A stretch of DNA of 64,000 nt from Bacteriovoracia bacterium. GTDB taxonomy: Bacteria; Bdellovibrionota; UBA1018; JBFWNL01. A model generated the notes under the pieces. It saw only the letters and a list, made by a program, of their open reading frames with translations. It did not search any database and had not been told where the DNA came from. Positions 53,361 to 62,268 of the stretch are shown here, in pieces (position 1 is the stretch's first letter; each line of letters opens with the position of its first letter). The stretch covers positions 491,825 through 555,824 of the forward strand of contig JBFWNL010000001.1 of assembly GCA_050251055.1 (NCBI GenBank), given 5' to 3'. A program made the position numbers and the translations under genes.

Positions 53361-54431
53361 CTACTTAGTGCGGCGCAAAAAGAAATCCACGCCCATGTCC
53401 AGGCTTTGGGCTTTGATTACCCACTCCCCCCGGATTTGCTCCATCCGTGCGGAGAAATCGAAATCGACCGTGGAAGAAGCGGATGGCGATACCGCCGGCG
53501 AGGAAGCCGTGGGGGCCGGAGCGGGAAGCGATAGATTCGTGCGCTTGAAAACCCCTTTGGCGAGACTGTCGGAAAGCCCGCCACGGGCCAGGAACGTCAA
53601 AGGGGCGTCAGCGGCGGGTTTCGCGCGCTCCACCCTCACGAGCTTCAACTTGCGCCCCCCTTGATCTGGCAGTTCAATCTCTCCTTCGAGCGACGGGTGG
53701 TCCTTCCCCAGGTTGATGATCAAGAGCGTGACTCGCTCCGTGACAAACCCTGGGGACGCTTTCGCGTCGGCTTTAGCGACCGCCTTGCCGCCCTTCTGGC
53801 TCACCGCCTTGGGTTCCCATTTCGGATCGAGCATTACCGCGGTCCCCGTCCACGAACCTTCCCAAGGGGGATCGGTCTTGGCGCCATCGCGGATAGGCAG
53901 CTCTTGAAACTTACCCTGCAGGCGCGCGTGCACCCACGTTTCTTTTTCATTTTGTTTATACTGCGTCAGGGTCTCGCGTACCGCCGCGCTATCGGGCATG
54001 AAATCCTGGATCGCTTTCGCCGCAAGAAAACGCGTCTGTACGTCCTCGTGCGTGAGAAAGCTTGAGACGAACGGAAGCTCCTTCACGCCTTGCGCGCGCG
54101 CGAGGGACGCCAGCGCCGTATGACGAATGGCCGAGGGGCCATCCGTCGCCTGGCGTTTCAAAAAATCCGCCGCGTCGGCGTCGTCGAACCATTGCAGACC
54201 GTTCAGCAACCGTACGCGCCGATAAGTCGCGCTCGTTTCTTCAAACATCTTGATGATCACGGCCGACGTGCCGGCGCCCATGCTACGCCAAGTTTCTGCG
54301 GTTTCGGTCGGATGCCGTTGGCTGAGCACCTCGTTGATCGAGTGGCGAATTTCTGTTTCACCGGCGTAAGCCCGCGCACCAAGCCCCGCGCCGTCGAACA
54401 GCCAAAAGCCCAACGCGAGCCAGATCACCAT
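53361..54431 (-). CDS. HEAT-repeat-like protein with a probable signal peptide
   Basis: IRHTALASLA and DVQTRFLAAKAI repeats; ATG at 54431 overlaps the upstream stop. Confidence 0.6.
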   Translation of the reverse strand: MVIWLALGFWLFDGAGLGARAYAGETEIRHSINEVLSQRHPTETAETWRSMGAGTSAVIIKMFEETSATYRRVRLLNGLQWFDDADAADFLKRQATDGPSAIRHTALASLARAQGVKELPFVSSFLTHEDVQTRFLAAKAIQDFMPDSAAVRETLTQYKQNEKETWVHARLQGKFQELPIRDGAKTDPPWEGSWTGTAVMLDPKWEPKAVSQKGGKAVAKADAKASPGFVTERVTLLIINLGKDHPSLEGEIELPDQGGRKLKLVRVERAKPAADAPLTFLARGGLSDSLAKGVFKRTNLSLPAPAPTASSPAVSPSASSTVDFDFSARMEQIRGEWVIKAQSLDMGVDFFLRRTK

Positions 54432-56164
54432 ATGAAAGGATTGTACTTCATTACCGCCGAGGATTGCGTGGAGAACATCACGCCGTCGCCGTTCGTCGTC
54501 CCGGATTCGTAATTCTTGCCGGTGTACCACATCATATGGTTGAACTGGCACTCCTCTACGAGTGGGCAAAGGGTCACCCCACCCACGGGATTCGAGTCGT
54601 AATTCGAGCAATAAGTCGTGTTCTGGCCGCAGGTAAAACCGGTCGAAGCCTGCTGGCTGCTCGAAAGGCACATATTGTGGCTAAGATTAACCGAACTCGA
54701 CGCATTGTGCACGACGGGGGTATCCGGAATGTGATCCTGCCCGGAGAGCGCACTAGTCGAAACCCCTTCCGAAGGATGGTTCAAACCCAGATAGTGGCCA
54801 ATCTCGTGCGAGATGGTGGCGCCCATATCACGGAAGTCGTTGGTCTGGCTCGTGACCGCGCAAGTGCCTGTGCCGTTACAGCTCGGGTTGGCGGTGGCGA
54901 GCTCATCGAAGCTCGAAAACGCAAGTCCACTGGCGCCCGTGCCATTGATCAGCGGACCGCGAATCGTGCCCGCTATGCCGAGAACGGTTCCCCCGCCGGT
55001 GCAGGTAGAGCATGGAAGGGTCGAGACCAAGAACACATTGAGCGCCTTGCCTTCCGTATCCGCCGGCACGACGGCGCTACCCGCCGCGAGCAACTTGCCC
55101 AAGTAGTTCACGTCCAGGTTGGCGTATTGATCGCCATGATCCGGTAGATCCCAATCGTAAGCGTTGATAGTGCCTAGTTTTACCCCAGGGCCCGGGGAGC
55201 TGGCATTGTAGTGGGCATAGACGTGATTGAAAAGTGCATTCAGGTTTTGCTGTCCCTTGGCGGTGGCGGCGTCAGCAATGTTCTTGCTGCCCACCATGAT
55301 GACATTCAAATCCACGGCGCGCGATCCGGTCCCGGAGTCTTTCTTCTTCACCACGGTGACTTCAATATCTGCGTAGTAAGTACCGGTGTTGAGCGAAATA
55401 TAACTATCGGCAATGACCACGTACTTGGCGGTATACGTGCCTTGCCGAAGCTTACCACCACTAAAGAACCCGCCGTGCGTTACCCCACCGTTGGCGCTGT
55501 TGTTCGAATTGAAATAGCATTTTTCGCGGGCGCCCACCGTCGCGTTCGTCCAGTTACAGTTGGGAAACGTGTTCGTGGAAATGCGGCCGGTGTCCGGCGC
55601 CTGGTGCTGAATCCACTGTTGGCGGCTAATGTAAGCGCTGGGCGCGGTAACGCTGCCACCCACCGAGTCGATAGTGGTAGTGCATCCGCTTTGATCGTAA
55701 CCACACGAGCTGCCCGAACAGGAGAAGTACCCCGCCGCCGCGCAGTCACTGCCGGTACCTGCACGGCGCGTGCTCACCAGATCGTCAGTGCCGTCACTCA
55801 ACGAAACTAGCATCGGCCATGCACTGCCGGAAAGATTAGAGGGGTAGTTCACCACCCGGGCCATGAGGGTGACCGAACCGTAAGTATCTAGGTCCGAACT
55901 CACGCTAAACGAAACGCTCACCTCGCGATCGGCTCCCGCGGGTTGCGCCATGCCCGTGACCTTCGCCCGGCCGGTTAAGACCGTCTTTGTGATTTCGGTA
56001 GTCGTGCCGTGATTCGAAGCGCTCGCCCCCGTCACGTTGGGAACCCAACTGGAAGTCACAAGCGTATTGACGACAGAAGTTTTGGGCTCCTCGTCCTTCG
56101 AGCAGCCGCTCACGAGCAGCCCGAGCAAGAGGCTCGGCAGCAGTAGCGCAGAAGTCGATTTCAT
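54425..56164 (-). CDS. Lipoprotein zinc metalloprotease (metzincin, M43/pappalysin-like)
   Basis: Lipobox VSGC; HEIGHYLGLNH zinc motif; Met-turn NHMMW; Cys-rich. Confidence 0.8.
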   Translation of the reverse strand: MKSTSALLLPSLLLGLLVSGCSKDEEPKTSVVNTLVTSSWVPNVTGASASNHGTTTEITKTVLTGRAKVTGMAQPAGADREVSVSFSVSSDLDTYGSVTLMARVVNYPSNLSGSAWPMLVSLSDGTDDLVSTRRAGTGSDCAAAGYFSCSGSSCGYDQSGCTTTIDSVGGSVTAPSAYISRQQWIQHQAPDTGRISTNTFPNCNWTNATVGAREKCYFNSNNSANGGVTHGGFFSGGKLRQGTYTAKYVVIADSYISLNTGTYYADIEVTVVKKKDSGTGSRAVDLNVIMVGSKNIADAATAKGQQNLNALFNHVYAHYNASSPGPGVKLGTINAYDWDLPDHGDQYANLDVNYLGKLLAAGSAVVPADTEGKALNVFLVSTLPCSTCTGGGTVLGIAGTIRGPLINGTGASGLAFSSFDELATANPSCNGTGTCAVTSQTNDFRDMGATISHEIGHYLGLNHPSEGVSTSALSGQDHIPDTPVVHNASSSVNLSHNMCLSSSQQASTGFTCGQNTTYCSNYDSNPVGGVTLCPLVEECQFNHMMWYTGKNYESGTTNGDGVMFSTQSSAVMKYNPFIW

Positions 56165-56505
56165 CCGATCCAACACGCGTGAACCTTCCTTTGGAAAAGC
56201 ACCTTTAATACTCATCGGTACGGCGTCTCTAAGCTTCACATTGCGCAGAGTCATTTTTTCACTAACGCTCAACGTTAACTCCGCAATTTCGTAGTTATAA
56301 TCCTTATTTTAGAGGGTTTTATGACGCTTCGCAACGTGTCAACCCGTCCCGCTTGATTCACGCATGGAAACTACGCCTTAGAAAACTGTGTCCGAGCGGA
56401 CTCATCCCTACGGGACACACGGGCTGGGCTTTGACAGTGCTCAAGAGCTGGTCAGCATAAAAATGAAAAGGACAAAAGCCTGAGTTTAAAGCGAGCGCGC
56501 CGAGG

Positions 56506-56522
56506 CAGGTACCGCTCTTGCA
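56506..56522 (+). promoter_or_regulatory. Putative sigma54 promoter
   Basis: CAGGTACCGCTCTTGCA: GG-N10-GC with TTGCA at -12, ending 39 nt before ATG 56562. Confidence 0.45.
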
Positions 56523-56561
56523 GCCTCTAGAATTACGTTCGGGGCATTAAGGCAAGGGTAC

Positions 56562-57266
56562 ATGGGCCAGTTAAAACGATGCTTCGGTGGCGCGCTCGTC
56601 GCTGCCTGGATTGCCGCCGGCGTGTCCGGCGTCGCTCACGCGAAAAACGCTCGTGCGAGTCAACCTACCGTGAAGACGGCGAAAGCCGCTTCGCTTAAGC
56701 CAAAGAAGAAACTGAAACCCGTGAAAGCGGTGGCGAGCGCGTCACTAAAATCAAAGGCGGCGGGTAAACCTTTAAAGAAGGCCGCAACAAATAAGAAACA
56801 CGCGTCGACCCGAGTCACGCGACGAAAACCGGTCAAGCCAGACCCTTCCGCTAACGTGATCGCCCAGGCGATCGCCACGAGCGAAGCGCCTCCCGGAAAA
56901 TTTCATCCGTTCATCCGAACGGCGCCGCGTATGGAGACTCTCCCGGCTTCGCACCTGTTGAAGACGGCGAAGAAGGGGACGCCTCCCCCGCCCCGGCGGC
57001 CGAAGCTCGAAGCCAATCCTTGGATGCGGGACTTTTTTGAAAACGCGGGCGTCTCCGCCAAGGGCGATCCAGATCTACAGACGCTCTCCGGCGATCAGGC
57101 GGAGCCACCCACACCCGGGACCTCGGATCCCACGCTCAATCTCGACGCCACGGATACCACTCAGCACGAAGCACCGGATGCCGATCCGACTACAGCGTCG
57201 CGGGCGCCGGCCGCCGTGGCAGAACCCATTTACGACGAAGAAAGCTTCATCATTCGCGGCCAATAG
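56562..57266 (+). CDS. Secreted low-complexity protein (Lys/Ala-rich N-half, acidic C-half)
   Basis: Signal peptide ending AHA; KPKKKLKPVK-type basic tract; Asp/Pro/Thr tail. Confidence 0.65.
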   Translation: MGQLKRCFGGALVAAWIAAGVSGVAHAKNARASQPTVKTAKAASLKPKKKLKPVKAVASASLKSKAAGKPLKKAATNKKHASTRVTRRKPVKPDPSANVIAQAIATSEAPPGKFHPFIRTAPRMETLPASHLLKTAKKGTPPPPRRPKLEANPWMRDFFENAGVSAKGDPDLQTLSGDQAEPPTPGTSDPTLNLDATDTTQHEAPDADPTTASRAPAAVAEPIYDEESFIIRGQ

Positions 57267-57627
57267 CGGCACGTTTTCGCGGATGGGGCTTGCGCTCTAG
57301 CGGAACTTTTCGCTCCTCACTCGAGGGACTCCGCCGCTCATCGGCCTCATCCGGTTCGTACTCCCCCTCGCACCGATGGTAGTCAACGACCACGGCATGC
57401 GCGCAGGCGCTATGATTTTGGATCGCACGATCGGAAAGCCCGGGCCAAAAACAGTGCCCACCTTCATCCGGGTCGTCAGGATCGGACGTCCAATCACCGC
57501 CCGTATCCACGCAGCATCTAAAGTAGCCCTTTAGGAGTTGGCCACGGCACCCCGGGCTCGCAATCGACACCGAATCCGCCCACGTCGCCACCAAAAGCAA
57601 TACCAAGCCGAACTGAATCGCGCTCAA
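57250..57627 (-). CDS. Secreted Cys-rich miniprotein (C-x10-CC ... C-x10-C)
   Basis: TTG start overlaps the pilin-like gene stop; hydrophobic leader; 6 Cys; similar to 59306..59689. Confidence 0.6.
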   Translation of the reverse strand: MSAIQFGLVLLLVATWADSVSIASPGCRGQLLKGYFRCCVDTGGDWTSDPDDPDEGGHCFWPGLSDRAIQNHSACAHAVVVDYHRCEGEYEPDEADERRSPSSEERKVPLERKPHPRKRAAIGRE

Positions 57628-58739
57628 TCGGCGAACCCCGCCAGAGTCACGCGCATGCTGCCCCACCCGCCGGTGGTGAAGCCGGACCAGTAGACATTTT
57701 TATCCGGGGTCGACTGATCGATCGGCACACGAATCTCCGCCGACATCGAAGCCGCGAACGCGCCATCATCCCCACGGTTGTAAGCCACGACGTTACGCAG
57801 CTTTTTCCAACGCTGCGGCCGCACCACCGCATTGGAATCCGAGAAAACCGCGATGGAAAACCGCGGTTTGCCAGGGCCACACCCGCCCGGGTTGCCGTTC
57901 GCCATCTCGACGTAAACGTTCAGAATCGCCGTCTTTGCATTGCGCCCGGGAAAGTGAGTCGCCTGCAGGGTCGCGGTCGGAATCGCTTGCCACGCGGGAG
58001 GCGCCGTATACCCCGGATCACCCGGCATCGGCGTCTCCCAAAGCGGCGGGAACTGGCAGTCGTGCGGGACGAATCCCCAACTCGGCAATGAAGTAGGTGG
58101 AGAAGTCTCGGGCCCGATCTCCACTAAGAGCGGCAGTAACGCCCCCTTGATCAACTCTTCAGAATGCACGAGCACGCTTGCGGTCCCGCCCGAAAAATTT
58201 GGATTCGTGGAGCATGAAGTAAGCACCCCTTCCGCGTCGGTATCTAATGAAAGAGGAACCGAGAGCGAGACCGGTGATAATCCAGGCCGGGCGGCGCTTA
58301 AATTCAGACTCGCCACGTAACGGGTACCGCCGGGATTGCTCGAGGGTGGGAGATTACGCAAGTTTCGATCCAGCTCCGTCAGGACGACCGAGAAGTTCGC
58401 AGTCGATGGTACCGACTGTCCGCCCACTAAAATATGGTGAAAGTTCGTGCGAAACCCGCGTCCCACTTCCACCCGCACGACCTCGCTACTACCTGCGGGC
58501 ACACGCATACCTGCATCGTCCGGTGGCGTGTACCCTATGAGCGCACGCGCGCAGTAGGCGGGGTCGTTCAAAGCCATGCGCACGAGGTTAGCGGTGTCTT
58601 GCAAACCTTGCCCGACCCACGCCGCATGCGAGAGCTTTTGGCTGTTGAGCTGGCCCGTGGACAGCGCATAGAGACCAATGATTCCGAGCGACATTCCGAG
58701 TAGAATTTCGATCAGCGTGAATCCCCGATTGTTCTTCAT
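57624..58739 (-). CDS. Prepilin-type N-terminal cleavage/methylation domain protein (large pilin-like)
   Basis: MKNNRG|FTLIE class III signal peptide; 371 aa. Confidence 0.85.
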   Translation of the reverse strand: MKNNRGFTLIEILLGMSLGIIGLYALSTGQLNSQKLSHAAWVGQGLQDTANLVRMALNDPAYCARALIGYTPPDDAGMRVPAGSSEVVRVEVGRGFRTNFHHILVGGQSVPSTANFSVVLTELDRNLRNLPPSSNPGGTRYVASLNLSAARPGLSPVSLSVPLSLDTDAEGVLTSCSTNPNFSGGTASVLVHSEELIKGALLPLLVEIGPETSPPTSLPSWGFVPHDCQFPPLWETPMPGDPGYTAPPAWQAIPTATLQATHFPGRNAKTAILNVYVEMANGNPGGCGPGKPRFSIAVFSDSNAVVRPQRWKKLRNVVAYNRGDDGAFAASMSAEIRVPIDQSTPDKNVYWSGFTTGGWGSMRVTLAGFAD

Positions 58740-58839
58740 ACTACCACCCCAATACGATCGCGAAGCTCAACGAAACCGTGAAAAACCGAGCGATCATTTT
58801 CCTCTATTCGCCGGCCCGATCTCCACTGACCGCGGAAGC

Positions 58840-59196
58840 TCATCCCAGGTAGATCTTCCGGCAAAGTCGACGAAACTCGTGATAACCCTTGACGCATTCT
58901 TCCGCGTCGACCGCTCCTCCCCGTAAACACCCCGTCAGTGCTGGCACCAGGCTCTGATAACAACCCGCCAGTCCTGGATTGATCCGATTGGGGTTCGGCA
59001 CATCGGAACGTTCTTCTTGCGGCAGCTCCGGGTAATCCCCCAGAAAACTCGGCAAATATCTAGGCACCACAACCTCAGCGAGAGTAGCGTCCGCCCCGTG
59101 AGCTAGATACGAACGACCCTGCATAATACCCTCAACGCCCAACAGATGAACCCCCAAGACCAAACCCACACTCACCCCAAACCGCTTGAACTTCAT
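58840..59196 (-). CDS. Secreted Cys miniprotein (C-x10-C-x10-C-x10-C)
   Basis: MKFKRF leader; GGACGGAG RBS; four Cys at the C-terminus. Confidence 0.65.
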   Translation of the reverse strand: MKFKRFGVSVGLVLGVHLLGVEGIMQGRSYLAHGADATLAEVVVPRYLPSFLGDYPELPQEERSDVPNPNRINPGLAGCYQSLVPALTGCLRGGAVDAEECVKGYHEFRRLCRKIYLG

Positions 59197-59231
59197 TACT
59201 CCGTCCCTTTCGCTTAAAGAAAATTCAACTC

Positions 59232-59281
59232 ATTTGAAATAAGGCCGGCGGCGGAATAACGTGCGAGGGACGCCGCCGGCC
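59232..59281 (-). terminator. GC hairpin plus U-rich tract (terminator-like), element A
   Basis: 11-bp perfect stem 59243-59253/59271-59281; TTATTT follows on the minus strand. Confidence 0.55.
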
Positions 59282-59305
59282 ACGGACTCAGCCCGTTTTC
59301 AAAAA

Positions 59306-59689
59306 TCACTCAGCATCATAAATTTCAATTTCGTTCTCTCCAGACTTCATTTGAATAGCGCCGTCGTGAGGAACTACGATCGGAAGATCGTCAGAGGGTT
59401 CGTACCAAGTGCGACCGTTCCCGCGGCATTCGATGAGCGCACGCTTAGCTCGGGCGATGCACTCTCTTTCGCCATCTTGACGATCACGCGGGATCGAACC
59501 CCGCAAACACCTGCCCTCCTCATCCACTTTTCCACCCGACCCGAGGCAACAGTTCTGCACCTTGACCGAGTACTGATCGTTGCAACTTGGAATGAGGTGC
59601 ACCCCGGAAGCTTCCGCCCCGCCGGAACCAGCGTGAATTCCGACGACCACACAAACCATAAGTACTACTTTTAATTGATTGAGTTTCAT
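59306..59689 (-). CDS. Secreted Cys-rich miniprotein (C-x10-CC ... C-x10-C)
   Basis: Signal peptide ending AEA; GAGGGG RBS; 6 Cys in the mature part. Confidence 0.65.
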   Translation of the reverse strand: MKLNQLKVVLMVCVVVGIHAGSGGAEASGVHLIPSCNDQYSVKVQNCCLGSGGKVDEEGRCLRGSIPRDRQDGERECIARAKRALIECRGNGRTWYEPSDDLPIVVPHDGAIQMKSGENEIEIYDAE

Positions 59690-59710
59690 AACTATCCCCT
59701 CTATTCGTTA

Positions 59711-60133
59711 CTAGTTATTGACCGCACGAAAAGCGGCTCCGCAGCCCTTCAAGCATTCGTTAAAGCCCTTGGTCGCAACCTTGTGACAACGCTCCCTGGC
59801 CTGCGCGTTCGTGGCTCGTTCACAAAGATCGTCACTGAGCCAAAAATTATAGGCACAGCAGTCGACGCAAGTTTGGTGTTGTGCGAGATATTGCTCTGGA
59901 TCCTGGGGCCACGAAGGCGCCACGCACTTCATAGGTACGCCGGGCGGAGGCGAGTCGATCGCGGGAATCTCCCGCTGTCCGTATACTCCTCCGCTCGCTT
60001 GCAGCGCAGGAGCCCCGCCCTCATCGAGATCCGCGTGATCAAACTCAAATGCTTTTGCCGAAGGCATCACCGCCAACACGGTCAAAAGCGACAACCACCC
60101 TATTCCGATTCTATCGATCTTTCCGTCCTTCAT
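59711..60133 (-). CDS. Secreted Cys-rich miniprotein (C-x2-CC-x10-C-x11-C-x10-C-x3-C)
   Basis: Signal peptide ending AKA; GAGGGGG RBS before ATG 60133. Confidence 0.65.
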   Translation of the reverse strand: MKDGKIDRIGIGWLSLLTVLAVMPSAKAFEFDHADLDEGGAPALQASGGVYGQREIPAIDSPPPGVPMKCVAPSWPQDPEQYLAQHQTCVDCCAYNFWLSDDLCERATNAQARERCHKVATKGFNECLKGCGAAFRAVNN

Positions 60134-60154
60134 TTTCGATCCCCCTCTTCGTTC

Positions 60155-60231
60155 AAAAATCAAAAAATAAGCACGGTCGGCGGCAAATGGGTTTTTGGGA
60201 TTTGGGCCACATGGTTTCCGCCGCCGACCGT
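60155..60231 (-). terminator. GC hairpin plus U tract in the 5' leader (attenuator-like), element B
   Basis: 12-bp perfect stem 60173-60184/60220-60231, followed on the minus strand by GCTTATTTTTTGATTTTT. Confidence 0.5.
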
Positions 60232-60277
60232 TCACTGGGTAAAACTTCTTTTGAATCCCTCGTTCGTCCGTGAATCC

Positions 60278-60306
60278 AGCTTACTAATTCGGTGCGTCAT
60301 AGTCAA
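60278..60306 (-). promoter_or_regulatory. Putative sigma70 promoter for the miniprotein cluster
   Basis: Minus strand TTGACT-17 nt-TAAGCT, with an AT-rich tract upstream. Confidence 0.45.
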
Positions 60307-60426
60307 ATATTTTTTTATATTTGTATTCGTTTTAAATTTATTTTTAAAAATTATCTTTAATATTCATATAATTAATTCCGATATAGACTATTGAATACAT
60401 ATAAAATAAAATTTTTGTATTCACTT

Positions 60427-61284
60427 ATGGCATTGCTCAAGCCGGATGTGCATCATTACAACGACCCGCTGAAGTTTCTACGGGACTGGTTCGCCTATCA
60501 GAAGGATTTGAACCCTGAGTTCTCCCTCCGCGCCTTTTCTAAGTCGGCGAGGCTTTCGGTAGGGTTCCTCCCCATCATTCTCAACGGCAAGCGCACGCTC
60601 ACGGAACGCGCGCTGGAACGCATTCTCCCCCCGATGGACCTTACCCTGGCGGAGGCGAACTTCCTGCGCTCGCTGCGGAAGCTCGCGCATTCACGCGACC
60701 GCGGCGAGCGGCGTACCGGCTTCCAATCCCTGCAGAAATATCAAATCTATCGCCGCCTCAACCCGAAGGAATTCGAAGTCTACCGCTACCTGAGCCGGTG
60801 GTTCTACGTCGTCATCCGCGAAATGGCGGATATGAGCCATTTTCAGCTGGATGCGGAATGGATTCGCGAACACCTCACCTACCCGGTGCCACTGACCGAA
60901 ATCCAAAAGGCTATTCGATTTCTCGTCGAGCATGGTTTTATCGAGCCCGCCTCCGGCGGCGCCCAGCCCGCCGCCAAGAAGGACAAACACATCACCTGTA
61001 ATGATGCGGTCTACCGCGTGGCAATGGCGGCGTACCACCAGTCCATGCTGAAGCTCGTCGCCGACTCGGTCGAAACCGTTGAGCGCGAACGCCGTCACAT
61101 CATGGGGATCACCGTCGGCATGGATGAGGCCACCTTTACCGAGGTGAAGGCGCTGATCGAATCGACGGTGGCCCGCATCCGTGAACTCACCGAAAAAGTC
61201 ACCCCTCGCCAAGCGGTGTACTATGTAACCCTCGCCGCCGTGCCGATGGCCGAACAAATCCAAGACCCCGAAAAAGCATCTTAA
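60427..61284 (+). CDS. TIGR02147 family protein (HTH-like N-terminus plus DUF4423-like region), putative regulator
   Basis: FLRDWF..QK..NPEFSLRAFS..ARLS..L..ILNGKR..T, WFYVVIRE, YHQSML, VYYVTL pattern. Confidence 0.85.
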   Translation: MALLKPDVHHYNDPLKFLRDWFAYQKDLNPEFSLRAFSKSARLSVGFLPIILNGKRTLTERALERILPPMDLTLAEANFLRSLRKLAHSRDRGERRTGFQSLQKYQIYRRLNPKEFEVYRYLSRWFYVVIREMADMSHFQLDAEWIREHLTYPVPLTEIQKAIRFLVEHGFIEPASGGAQPAAKKDKHITCNDAVYRVAMAAYHQSMLKLVADSVETVERERRHIMGITVGMDEATFTEVKALIESTVARIRELTEKVTPRQAVYYVTLAAVPMAEQIQDPEKAS

Positions 61285-61383
61285 GTGCTTGTAATATTTT
61301 AGCTATTATTATGACGCAGCTTAACAATTTCGCGCTTATTTCACTCTATAATGTAAGGGAAGCTTTGTTGCTAGGGGGCCTAT

Positions 61384-62268
61384 TTGAAGTTCGGGCAATT
61401 CTACGCGCTGACCGCTATCCTGCCGATCTTGGCGGGTTGCGCTCAGCAATCCATTTCCTCGTCATCTTCGCCGGGCACGTCCACGACGGTGGGCAATCCC
61501 ATCACGCAATCCGCCGCACTCGCAATCGAAACCACCCTTTCCGGAGACCGCTGGAATCACCTCGCCGCTTGCGTGACGGGAGTGGAACTCATCCGCGGTT
61601 ACGGCGAATTAGGCACGAACCCCGGCACTTTCGATGGCCACGCTCACAACGGCACCGCCCCCTTGACGGAGCTCGACGCGCAATGGATCAGCACGGAGAA
61701 AGACCTCATCCTCTCTCCGGAAGTACAGATTCCCGCGGGTAACTACGAAGGCATTATTTTGCAAACCCAGCCCAATTGTGGCGCACCCGCGCAAGCGAGC
61801 GGCTATGCCTACAATGCACGCGCGGAGATTTACTCCACGAGCGCGAATCCAAACCGGCTCTGGTTTTTCGGGGCGTTTCACGTGGCCAGCAGCGGGATTG
61901 AATCGCCGTCCGTCGGCGGCGAGGCGCGGCCTCCCGCGATTCACCCCAATATTGCTGGTTTCGCGCAATTCCTGGGGCCCGACTTAGGCGAATCGGAGAT
62001 TTCCGCCGAGCCGCCAGCGGAGCGCGGCGACCGGGTCGCCAAAACGACCTACAAGCTCATCCTGAATCTGGATCGATTCCGCGCACGCTTGCCCGCGGAT
62101 AACGAAAATCCATCCGCCGTGGATGCCGCGCTCAACGGCACTTCGGGGGTCATGAGGGTGGAGTCGGTGACCCTGGAGCGAATCACCCCATCGGTCAGCG
62201 GCGAGCCTCCTACCGGCATCCGACCGGAGCTGCACTCGCTCGGACCGGCGCGCCCACGGCCGCGCTAG
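61384..62268 (+). CDS. Hypothetical lipoprotein with a GTSTTVGNP motif
   Basis: TTG start after AGGGGG; lipobox LAGC; IPAGNYEGI segment reminiscent of DUF4382. Confidence 0.65.
   Translation: MKFGQFYALTAILPILAGCAQQSISSSSSPGTSTTVGNPITQSAALAIETTLSGDRWNHLAACVTGVELIRGYGELGTNPGTFDGHAHNGTAPLTELDAQWISTEKDLILSPEVQIPAGNYEGIILQTQPNCGAPAQASGYAYNARAEIYSTSANPNRLWFFGAFHVASSGIESPSVGGEARPPAIHPNIAGFAQFLGPDLGESEISAEPPAERGDRVAKTTYKLILNLDRFRARLPADNENPSAVDAALNGTSGVMRVESVTLERITPSVSGEPPTGIRPELHSLGPARPRPR

Follow-up and report, generated by a model that had tools for sequence, protein, structure and literature searches.

What holds together a run of small, cysteine-rich, apparently exported proteins encoded side by side in a predatory-lineage bacterium, and what might such proteins do? 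We asked this of a Bacteriovoracia bacterium (GenBank assembly GCA_050251055.1), in which a 64,000-nucleotide (nt) stretch of contig JBFWNL010000001.1 (forward-strand positions 491,825 to 555,824), referred to as the window, contains a cluster of five co-directional minus-strand open reading frames (ORFs) running from 60133 to 57250 in the order A-B-C-D-E. Gene A (59711 to 60133), gene B (59306 to 59689), and gene C (58840 to 59196) encode predicted exported miniproteins of 140, 127, and 118 amino acids (aa), with a six-cysteine core in B and a four-cysteine core in C. Gene E (57250 to 57666) encodes a miniprotein of 138 aa if read from a GTG at 57666 or of 125 aa if read from a TTG at 57627, and gene D (57624 to 58739), between C and E, encodes a 371-aa type IV pilin-like protein. 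The explanation that best fits the whole, to which we assign a probability of about 0.5, is a lineage-restricted five-gene string of exported disulfide hairpins with an orphan pilin-like protein, D. An earlier note on this DNA had described four co-oriented ORFs with signal-peptide-like N termini and C-x10-C cysteine spacing, and all four are present on the minus strand. The cluster of four miniproteins thus stands, but the note overlooked D, the fifth gene and the only functional clue. The 138-aa ORF of E exists from the GTG, but a public protein collection calls the 125-aa form from the TTG start, which shares the tetranucleotide TTGA with the TGA stop of D. The same collection contains a protein identical to the 140-aa product of A. 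Purine-rich, Shine-Dalgarno-like motifs precede A, B, C, and D (GGGGGA ahead of A).

The N termini of all four miniproteins have a charged start, a hydrophobic stretch of 11 to 16 residues, and a small-x-small site, from which we predicted signal peptides by direct reading of the sequence; in A, cleavage is predicted after AKA at residue 28. The mature proteins are 84 to 112 aa long and acidic (pI 4.8 to 5.3), and each has an even number of cysteines. A has eight cysteines, with gaps of 18, 2, 0, 10, 11, 10, and 3 residues, in a core of C89-x3-C93-x10-C104-x11-C116-x10-C127-x3-C131 plus C70 and C92. Mature B has gaps of 10, 0, 12, 15, and 10 (C36-x10-C47C48-x12-C61-x15-C77-x10-C88, then YEP), and E has gaps of 10, 0, 19, 15, and 10 (C40-x10-C51C52-x19-C72-x15-C88-x10-C99, then YEP and a charged tail). 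C is the most regular, with three gaps of 10 (C79-x10-C90-x10-C101-x10-C112). In all four proteins the spacing is mirror symmetric about a central gap: 3 and 10, then 11, then 10 and 3 in A (counting C89-x3-C93 across C92); 10, a loop, and 10 in B and E; and 10, 10, and 10 in C. Such symmetry is a requirement of an antiparallel hairpin with nested cross-links. The extra CC..C of B and E would be able to tie down the loop. The acidic, proline-rich segments previously reported are also present, as linkers covering residues 29 to 69 of A and 35 to 78 of C.

Proteins with this spacing are uncommon in the genome. At least two C-x10-C pairs occur in 64 of 15478 ORFs of 60 to 250 aa (17 of the 5765 with a positive coding score), so four such ORFs within 2.9 kb are not a chance clustering. 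The genome-wide enrichment of the spacing itself is modest: gaps of 10 account for 39 of 872 consecutive-cysteine gaps in small ORFs with crudely signal-peptide-like N termini versus 50 of 2996 in other ORFs. The count of 39 falls to 32 without this locus, and the signal-peptide set contains gaps of 3 and of 8 just as often.

B and E are probably diverged paralogues, judging from their alignment. Although only 29% identical, both read P-x-C-x10-CC..GG..DE-x-G-x-C-x15-C-x10-C..YEP, with six cysteines and four short motifs in register, and their local alignment score was reached by 26 of 2000 shuffles of the mature proteins and by 4 of 1000 shuffles of the cores. The motifs quoted for B and E in the earlier note align as written, on one scaffold. 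Its proposal of a single diversified family of four did not survive: no pair among A, B, C, and E other than B-E was significant in the shuffle tests, and A and C have only their architecture in common with B and E. A protein search of the organism's own genome found no paralogues of B or E.

The architecture recurs elsewhere in the genome, where mirror-symmetric cysteine gaps are found in at least five more small ORFs with a signal peptide. These are L027 (C4:261441-261713; gaps 10, 12, and 10), L028 (C6:113065-113385; gaps 10, 15, and 10), L029 (C7:146370-146657; 3 and 10, then 12, then 10 and 3), L030 (C10:81532-81822; 3 and 10, then 17, then 10 and 3), and L031 (C7:195886-196233, minus strand). 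The last encodes 115 aa with ten cysteines, in which gaps of 10, 10, 6, and 3 precede a central gap of 7 and gaps of 3, 6, 10, and 10 follow it, a pattern that points to a long hairpin in which five disulfide rungs are nested; L031 has no Pfam match. L027 to L030 are dispersed, and we saw no neighbor common to them. The pairs C-L027 and L027-L028 scored above most shuffles (reached by 2 of 1000 and 8 of 1000, respectively); such scores are expected with shared spacing and do not prove common descent. MAFFT did not bring C, L027, and L028 into cysteine register, and for that reason no cross-family profile was built.

We consider it likely that the cysteine cores of A, B, C, and E fold as disulfide-pinned two-helix hairpins. 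In the nine C-x10-C segments of these proteins, the residue at +4 from the first cysteine is hydrophobic in eight and the residue at +8 in seven; in the other hairpin ORFs of the genome, the corresponding counts are 14 and 12 of 15 segments. The hydrophobic fraction at +2, +3, and +9 is about 0.2 to 0.3, and at +10 it is 0.22 in the segments of the cluster and 0.40 in the others. The resulting 0/+4/+8/+11 pattern marks one face of a helix. AlphaFold2 (AF2) models were made for B and C. For B, modeled from the two-sequence B/E alignment, AF2 placed helices at residues 36 to 50 and 68 to 91, with a predicted local distance difference test score (pLDDT) of 66 to 89 in 10-residue blocks over residues 31 to 90 and a disordered signal peptide and C-terminal tail. 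For C, modeled as a single sequence, helices at residues 74 to 92 and 98 to 117 bear the four cysteines at pLDDT 58 to 68. The ESM Atlas holds its own model of A (pLDDT 0.61), whose structural neighbors align to residues 76 to 140. The helical hairpin proposed in the earlier note is thus favored by the cysteine symmetry, the amphipathic pattern, and the AF2 model of B, but the hairpin of C is of low confidence. A PDB sequence search gave no match below an E value of 0.1, and in the ESM Atlas the best feature scores were 0.77 to 0.80 versus a lead level of 0.9, with structure rows that were unrelated helical proteins.

Gene D is, from its N-terminal motif, a type IV pilin- or pseudopilin-like protein. 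Its N terminus, MKNNRG/FTLIEILLG (the slash marks the cleavage site), is a prepilin cleavage and methylation motif, with G at -1, a hydrophobic residue at +1, and E at +5; it scores 25.1 bits against PF07963 (N_methyl; cut-off 21.2) and 16.1 against TIGR02532, just below the cut-off of 16.3. Only this N-terminal pilin motif is shared with other sequences: 61 relatives, 15 loci in GTDB contigs, and 31 loci in metagenome contigs matched, and the relatives align to query residues 1 to 159 or less. For the globular part (approximately residues 60 to 371, with four cysteines), none of the searched collections gave a relative and the PDB gave no sequence match. The genome encodes two prepilin peptidases, and a prepilin-motif regular expression (G-F-T-L-I-E type) matches 35 of its ORFs; in 22, the match falls among the N-terminal 30 residues. 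Cysteine-rich members of 370 to 890 aa are numerous in this set, which makes up an unusually large pilin-like repertoire.

The organism also appears equipped to oxidize exported cysteines. A single open frame of 417 aa (C15:12156-13265) contains both a VKOR and a DsbA-like (Thioredoxin_4) match, and there is a second DsbA-like gene; with these genes, exported cysteines can be oxidized. DsbB was not found in the 93.5%-complete genome (3.77 Mb), and periplasmic disulfide formation is, to judge by this gene content, probably VKOR driven.

The disulfide pairing and the function that we infer for the miniproteins are as follows. A, B, C, and E would be exported by the Sec pathway and oxidized in the periplasm by a VKOR/DsbA-type system. 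Each cysteine core would then form an antiparallel two-helix hairpin, with i,i+11 cysteines on one helix face, closed by disulfides nested across the two helices; C would have two of these, A three or four, and B and E three, the third of which pins the loop. Flexibility would be retained in the linkers of A and C and in the tails of B and E. At least C and E would be made together with D, E by translational coupling, and the miniproteins would serve as stable extracytoplasmic binding modules. That they act as accessories to, or partners of, a type IV filament or cell-surface contact device in this predatory-lineage bacterium is a tentative proposal that we hold to be rather doubtful. It is improbable, going a step further, that they are the first members of an undescribed bacterial class of Sec-exported, VKOR/DsbA-oxidized, CHCH-like "disulfide-ladder" hairpins with mirror-symmetric C-x10-C (and C-x3-C) rungs, expanded to at least nine genes in this one genome, of which the four here would act as exchangeable, hyper-stable partners or caps that dock on D and customize the filament tip for contact with prey or surfaces.

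Known families offered no match for these proteins. A, B, C, and E matched no family in Pfam (E ≤ 0.1), NCBIfam, PHROGs, or PADLOC. The earlier note had named LprI and PsiF (which we take to be PF07007 and PF07769) as families whose recognition would undo its claim of novelty, and neither these nor any other known family was matched in Pfam or NCBIfam. Among 13 other small cysteine-rich ORFs of the genome, none had a Pfam match at or above the curated cut-off, and three gave weak rows (E = 0.11 to 0.39). Each of A, B, and E returned only itself from a word-based search of 5.8 billion proteins that covered targets of 0.55 to 1.75 times the query length. The profile search suggested in the earlier note, with a B/E core profile, was run exhaustively against 1.84 billion representatives and returned only B, E, and P0003. 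We rejected P0003, a repeat protein without cysteines in which the acidic loop is matched five times.

Searches of related genomes were similarly empty. Against 116 genomes of the same order, A and C gave three matches each (E = 0.003 to 0.01), which is about what chance provides, and we rejected these, most of which had stops or lay inside long ORFs. One match to C among 401 genomes of the phylum (E = 1.5e-4) was also rejected because it falls in another reading frame within a 430-aa ORF, presumably enolase. L028, L029, L030, and L031 found nothing in the 116 order genomes, or noise with an internal TGA. In the genome collection, the family of this organism is represented by the source genome alone, so rapid divergence past detection is a sufficient explanation of the missing relatives.

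The closest structural parallel is the mitochondrial CHCH fold, in which CX9C motifs, and CX10C motifs in COA6, Cox6B1, and CMC4, staple a helix hairpin with two disulfides (PMC12114033, PMC6946597). The likeness, as predicted here, extends to the helix-turn-helix, the two cysteines per helix about three turns apart, the two nested disulfides, and the oxidizing compartment of the CHCH group. The differences are equally clear: CX10C occurs on both helices in all four miniproteins and the canonical CX9C spacing is absent; the miniproteins have a Sec-type N terminus and would depend on VKOR/DsbA-like oxidation, whereas CHCH proteins are mitochondrial, lack a signal peptide, and use MIA40/Erv1; and A, B, and E have extra cysteines, in a bacterial host. 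None of A, B, C, and E matched PF06747 or other CHCH-type Pfam models (E ≤ 0.1) or NCBIfam. The relationship is therefore one of analogy: in sequence, targeting, and spacing, the miniproteins do not qualify as members.

Plant alpha-hairpinins and vicilin-buried peptides are likewise secreted helix-loop-helix proteins with two nested disulfides, and A, L029, and L030 add an outer C-x3-C rung. The cysteine spacing in the miniproteins is 10 rather than 3, so the helices would be about twice as long, and the mature proteins are 84 to 112 aa and acidic. The alpha-hairpinin arrangement of CX3C-Xn-CX3C in about 30 to 50 aa does not occur here: B, C, and E have no CX3C pair, and in A such pairs (C89-x3-C93 and C127-x3-C131) serve only as the outermost rungs of a hairpin built on CX10C. 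We regard the four miniproteins as probably lineage-restricted structural analogues of the CHCH and alpha-hairpinin folds. A bacterial point of comparison is provided by the glycocins (sublancin 168 and glycocin F), secreted bacteriocins of about 40 aa that form a two-helix hairpin with two nested disulfides and have a double-glycine leader, C-x6-C spacing, and glycosyltransferase, transporter, and thiol-disulfide genes alongside. Pfam and NCBIfam searches of the ten proteins tested between 53361 and 62268 found no double-glycine leader, S/O-glycosyltransferase, or peptidase-ABC transporter, and no thiol-disulfide gene of the glycocin kind is present at the locus. A literature search for bacterial periplasmic CX10C or CHCH-like hairpins gave only mitochondrial and plant work, which does not prove their absence from print.

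For D, the nearest functional model, by analogy, is the minor-pilin tip of Myxococcus; for the miniproteins it is not. Predatory bacteria have several variable, disulfide-rich pilin-like proteins, the KilLMN "Tips," whose genes form small sets apart from those for the pilus machinery (PMC12075869), and D is likewise a pilin-like protein, large and orphan, from a genome that has many genes of this kind. The partners of the Tips are without exception pilin-like (TadE/F/G) and have a prepilin site and an alpha1N helix (PMC12075869), whereas the miniproteins have ordinary signal peptides.

The surroundings of the cluster include several other unusual genes. In the spacer between B and C, an RNA stem-loop on the minus strand (59243 to 59281) has an 11-bp GC-only stem and a 17-nt loop and is followed by UUAUUUCAAAU. 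The stem was seen in both the minimum free energy and the centroid structures, although the z-score of the whole spacer was only -1.1, and a terminator scan with a loop limit of 8 nt did not list it. It may be a partial terminator, ending or attenuating an A-B transcript, or an mRNA-stabilizing hairpin. Upstream of A, a 257-bp AT-rich intergenic region (60134 to 60390; GC content 0.416 within 60000 to 60499) separates the cluster from a divergent plus-strand TIGR02147/DUF4423 gene (60391 to 61284; TIGR02147 E = 7.4e-41 in NCBIfam). The intergenic region is presumed to be the promoter region; a promoter scan of it found promoter-like sites on the plus strand only. Within the TIGR02147 gene, a 120-nt stretch (60744 to 60865, plus strand) is matched at approximately 80 to 90% by several other contigs of the same metagenome, which fits a conserved core of multicopy TIGR02147 paralogues in co-occurring organisms.

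On the other side, a plus-strand gene (56562 to 57266) runs toward E and shares 17 nt with its 3' end. It encodes a Lys/Pro-rich secreted protein of 234 aa with a signal peptide, a basic half rich in Lys, Ala, and Pro, and an acidic half rich in Pro and Thr, with no family match. About 1 kb from the cluster, a minus-strand gene (54425 to 56272) encodes a 615-aa, cysteine-rich candidate M43-like metalloprotease lipoprotein; its match to the M43/metzincin zinc site (HEIGHYLGLNH) is weak, far under the curated cut-offs of named families. More broadly, positions 53361 to 62268 form about 9 kb of successive low-coding-score genes (0.01 to 0.17, except for the TIGR02147 gene at 0.28) with secreted or lipoprotein-like products, flanked by well-scoring CoA-transferase subunit and thiolase genes. 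No tRNA, integrase, or obvious mobile-element gene was seen at the borders of the region.

Several results weigh against a five-gene string of exported hairpins. The coding scores of the five ORFs (0.01 to 0.11 per codon) fall in the 5th to 14th percentile of 130-codon windows of long genes, and 4.5 to 13% of off-frame windows surpass the scores of the cluster ORFs. The runs listed as containing this DNA are landfill-metagenome DNA only, with no RNA run among them. The GC hairpin may split A-B from C-D-E. With no orthologue in any searched collection, conservation, covariation, and dN/dS lend no support; the earlier note had itself named a lack of conservation as damaging, and to that extent its doubt is borne out, and selection cannot be shown. 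Disulfide pairing was deduced from the cysteine spacing, not from model coordinates; the AF2 model of C is of low confidence (mean pLDDT 54.9); Foldseek found no PDB match at E ≤ 0.001; and for the B model the best VIA-align Z score among 48161 chains was 5.2, with none at Z ≥ 8 and the matches being generic hairpins. A, B, C, and E have no prepilin motif (no G-x-x-x-x-E in their N termini) and no N_methyl or TadE match, and no pilin gene is consistently seen next to the genes for the genome's other hairpin miniproteins. Such scattered siblings, without a regular pilin neighbor, weaken the idea of a pilin partner.

Whether the small ORFs are genes at all is the most basic of the questions raised by these points. 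The four scored 0.01 to 0.08 per codon versus a genome median of 0.25, and the antisense frame of B scored 0.001 versus 0.048 for B itself; A scored 0.033 in its 140-aa form and failed the coding-score filter in its 174-aa, longest-ORF form. Together with the missing homologues and RNA runs, these values speak for the reading that some or all of the small ORFs are untranslated, chance open frames in a fast-evolving atypical region, which we nevertheless consider highly unlikely. By codon usage, the annotated frame is the best of six for all five ORFs; Shine-Dalgarno-like motifs and signal-peptide-like N termini are in place; and four such ORFs would not be expected side by side by chance. The register of six cysteines and four motifs in B and E at so low an identity, the AF2 confidence in the B core (pLDDT 86 to 89, almost without an alignment), and the amphipathic pattern also count for translation, and the cluster ORFs are probably translated. 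The GC content at third codon positions (GC3) of the cluster genes is 0.53 to 0.68 versus 0.72 for the long genes of the genome, which, with the low coding scores, fits atypical, recently evolved or acquired genes; some doubt remains. The accessory setting proposed in the earlier note agrees with these GC3 values, with the coding-score percentiles, and with the lack of detected orthologues. Contigs of two landfill-metagenome runs from one study, in which the window may have originated, are identical to it, and a third run contributed one identical 181-nt piece, which leaves no strain variation to analyze.

If the ORFs are genes, their products might instead be free secreted effectors (hairpin toxins, inhibitors, immunity-like proteins, or signals) directed at prey or competitors, with D a mere neighbor. 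We regard this as unlikely but as a contender to be taken seriously. Secreted effectors and antimicrobial hairpin peptides, plant alpha-hairpinins among them, typically have signal peptides and small folds stabilized by disulfides; fast divergence and orphan status fit arms-race proteins; similar hairpin genes are dispersed without pilin neighbors; and the secreted M43-like metalloprotease candidate is 1 kb away. The VIA rows for the B model include a vicilin-buried peptide (6o3q; Z = 4.9) and a Jug r 2 fragment (9q1l_F; Z = 5.1, root mean square deviation 1.1 over 39 residues), but both are tied with dozens of unrelated hairpins. The acidity of the mature proteins is unlike most membrane-active peptides, and the string is without export, immunity, or processing genes. 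We found no evidence here for the toxin, inhibitor, prey-recognition, or signal roles that the earlier note had put forward. A further alternative, which we judge very unlikely, is that the miniproteins are periplasmic redox or copper-handling proteins like Cox17 or COA6, in which a reduced CC pair (A, B, and E) binds metal or exchanges disulfides. Cox17 uses a CC pair for Cu(I), and in A, B, and E a C-x10-C helix does begin or end with a CC doublet, but C has none. Thiol-disulfide and copper-delivery factors are among the CX9C/CX10C hairpin proteins found in the intermembrane space (PMC6946597, PMC12114033), yet there was no Pfam CHCH, COX17, Cmc1, or COX6B match at E ≤ 0.1, no copper, cytochrome oxidase, or redox gene was found in the neighborhood, and the even cysteine count of each mature protein permits full oxidation.

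A lineage-restricted string of exported disulfide hairpins around an orphan pilin-like gene, if its products are real and fold as predicted, would be a bacterial, signal-peptide-exported counterpart of the mitochondrial CHCH and plant alpha-hairpinin proteins. Its value is at present limited, since it is known from one genome, without relatives. If the reading is true, the hairpins appear to have arisen independently, and the regularity of their rungs (up to five nested pairs in L031) would make hairpin length readable from sequence. Tiny protease-resistant scaffolds of this kind would be useful starting points for binders. In this predatory lineage, the miniproteins may mark fast-evolving contact or effector proteins, and their position around an orphan pilin-like gene provides one concrete, testable link.

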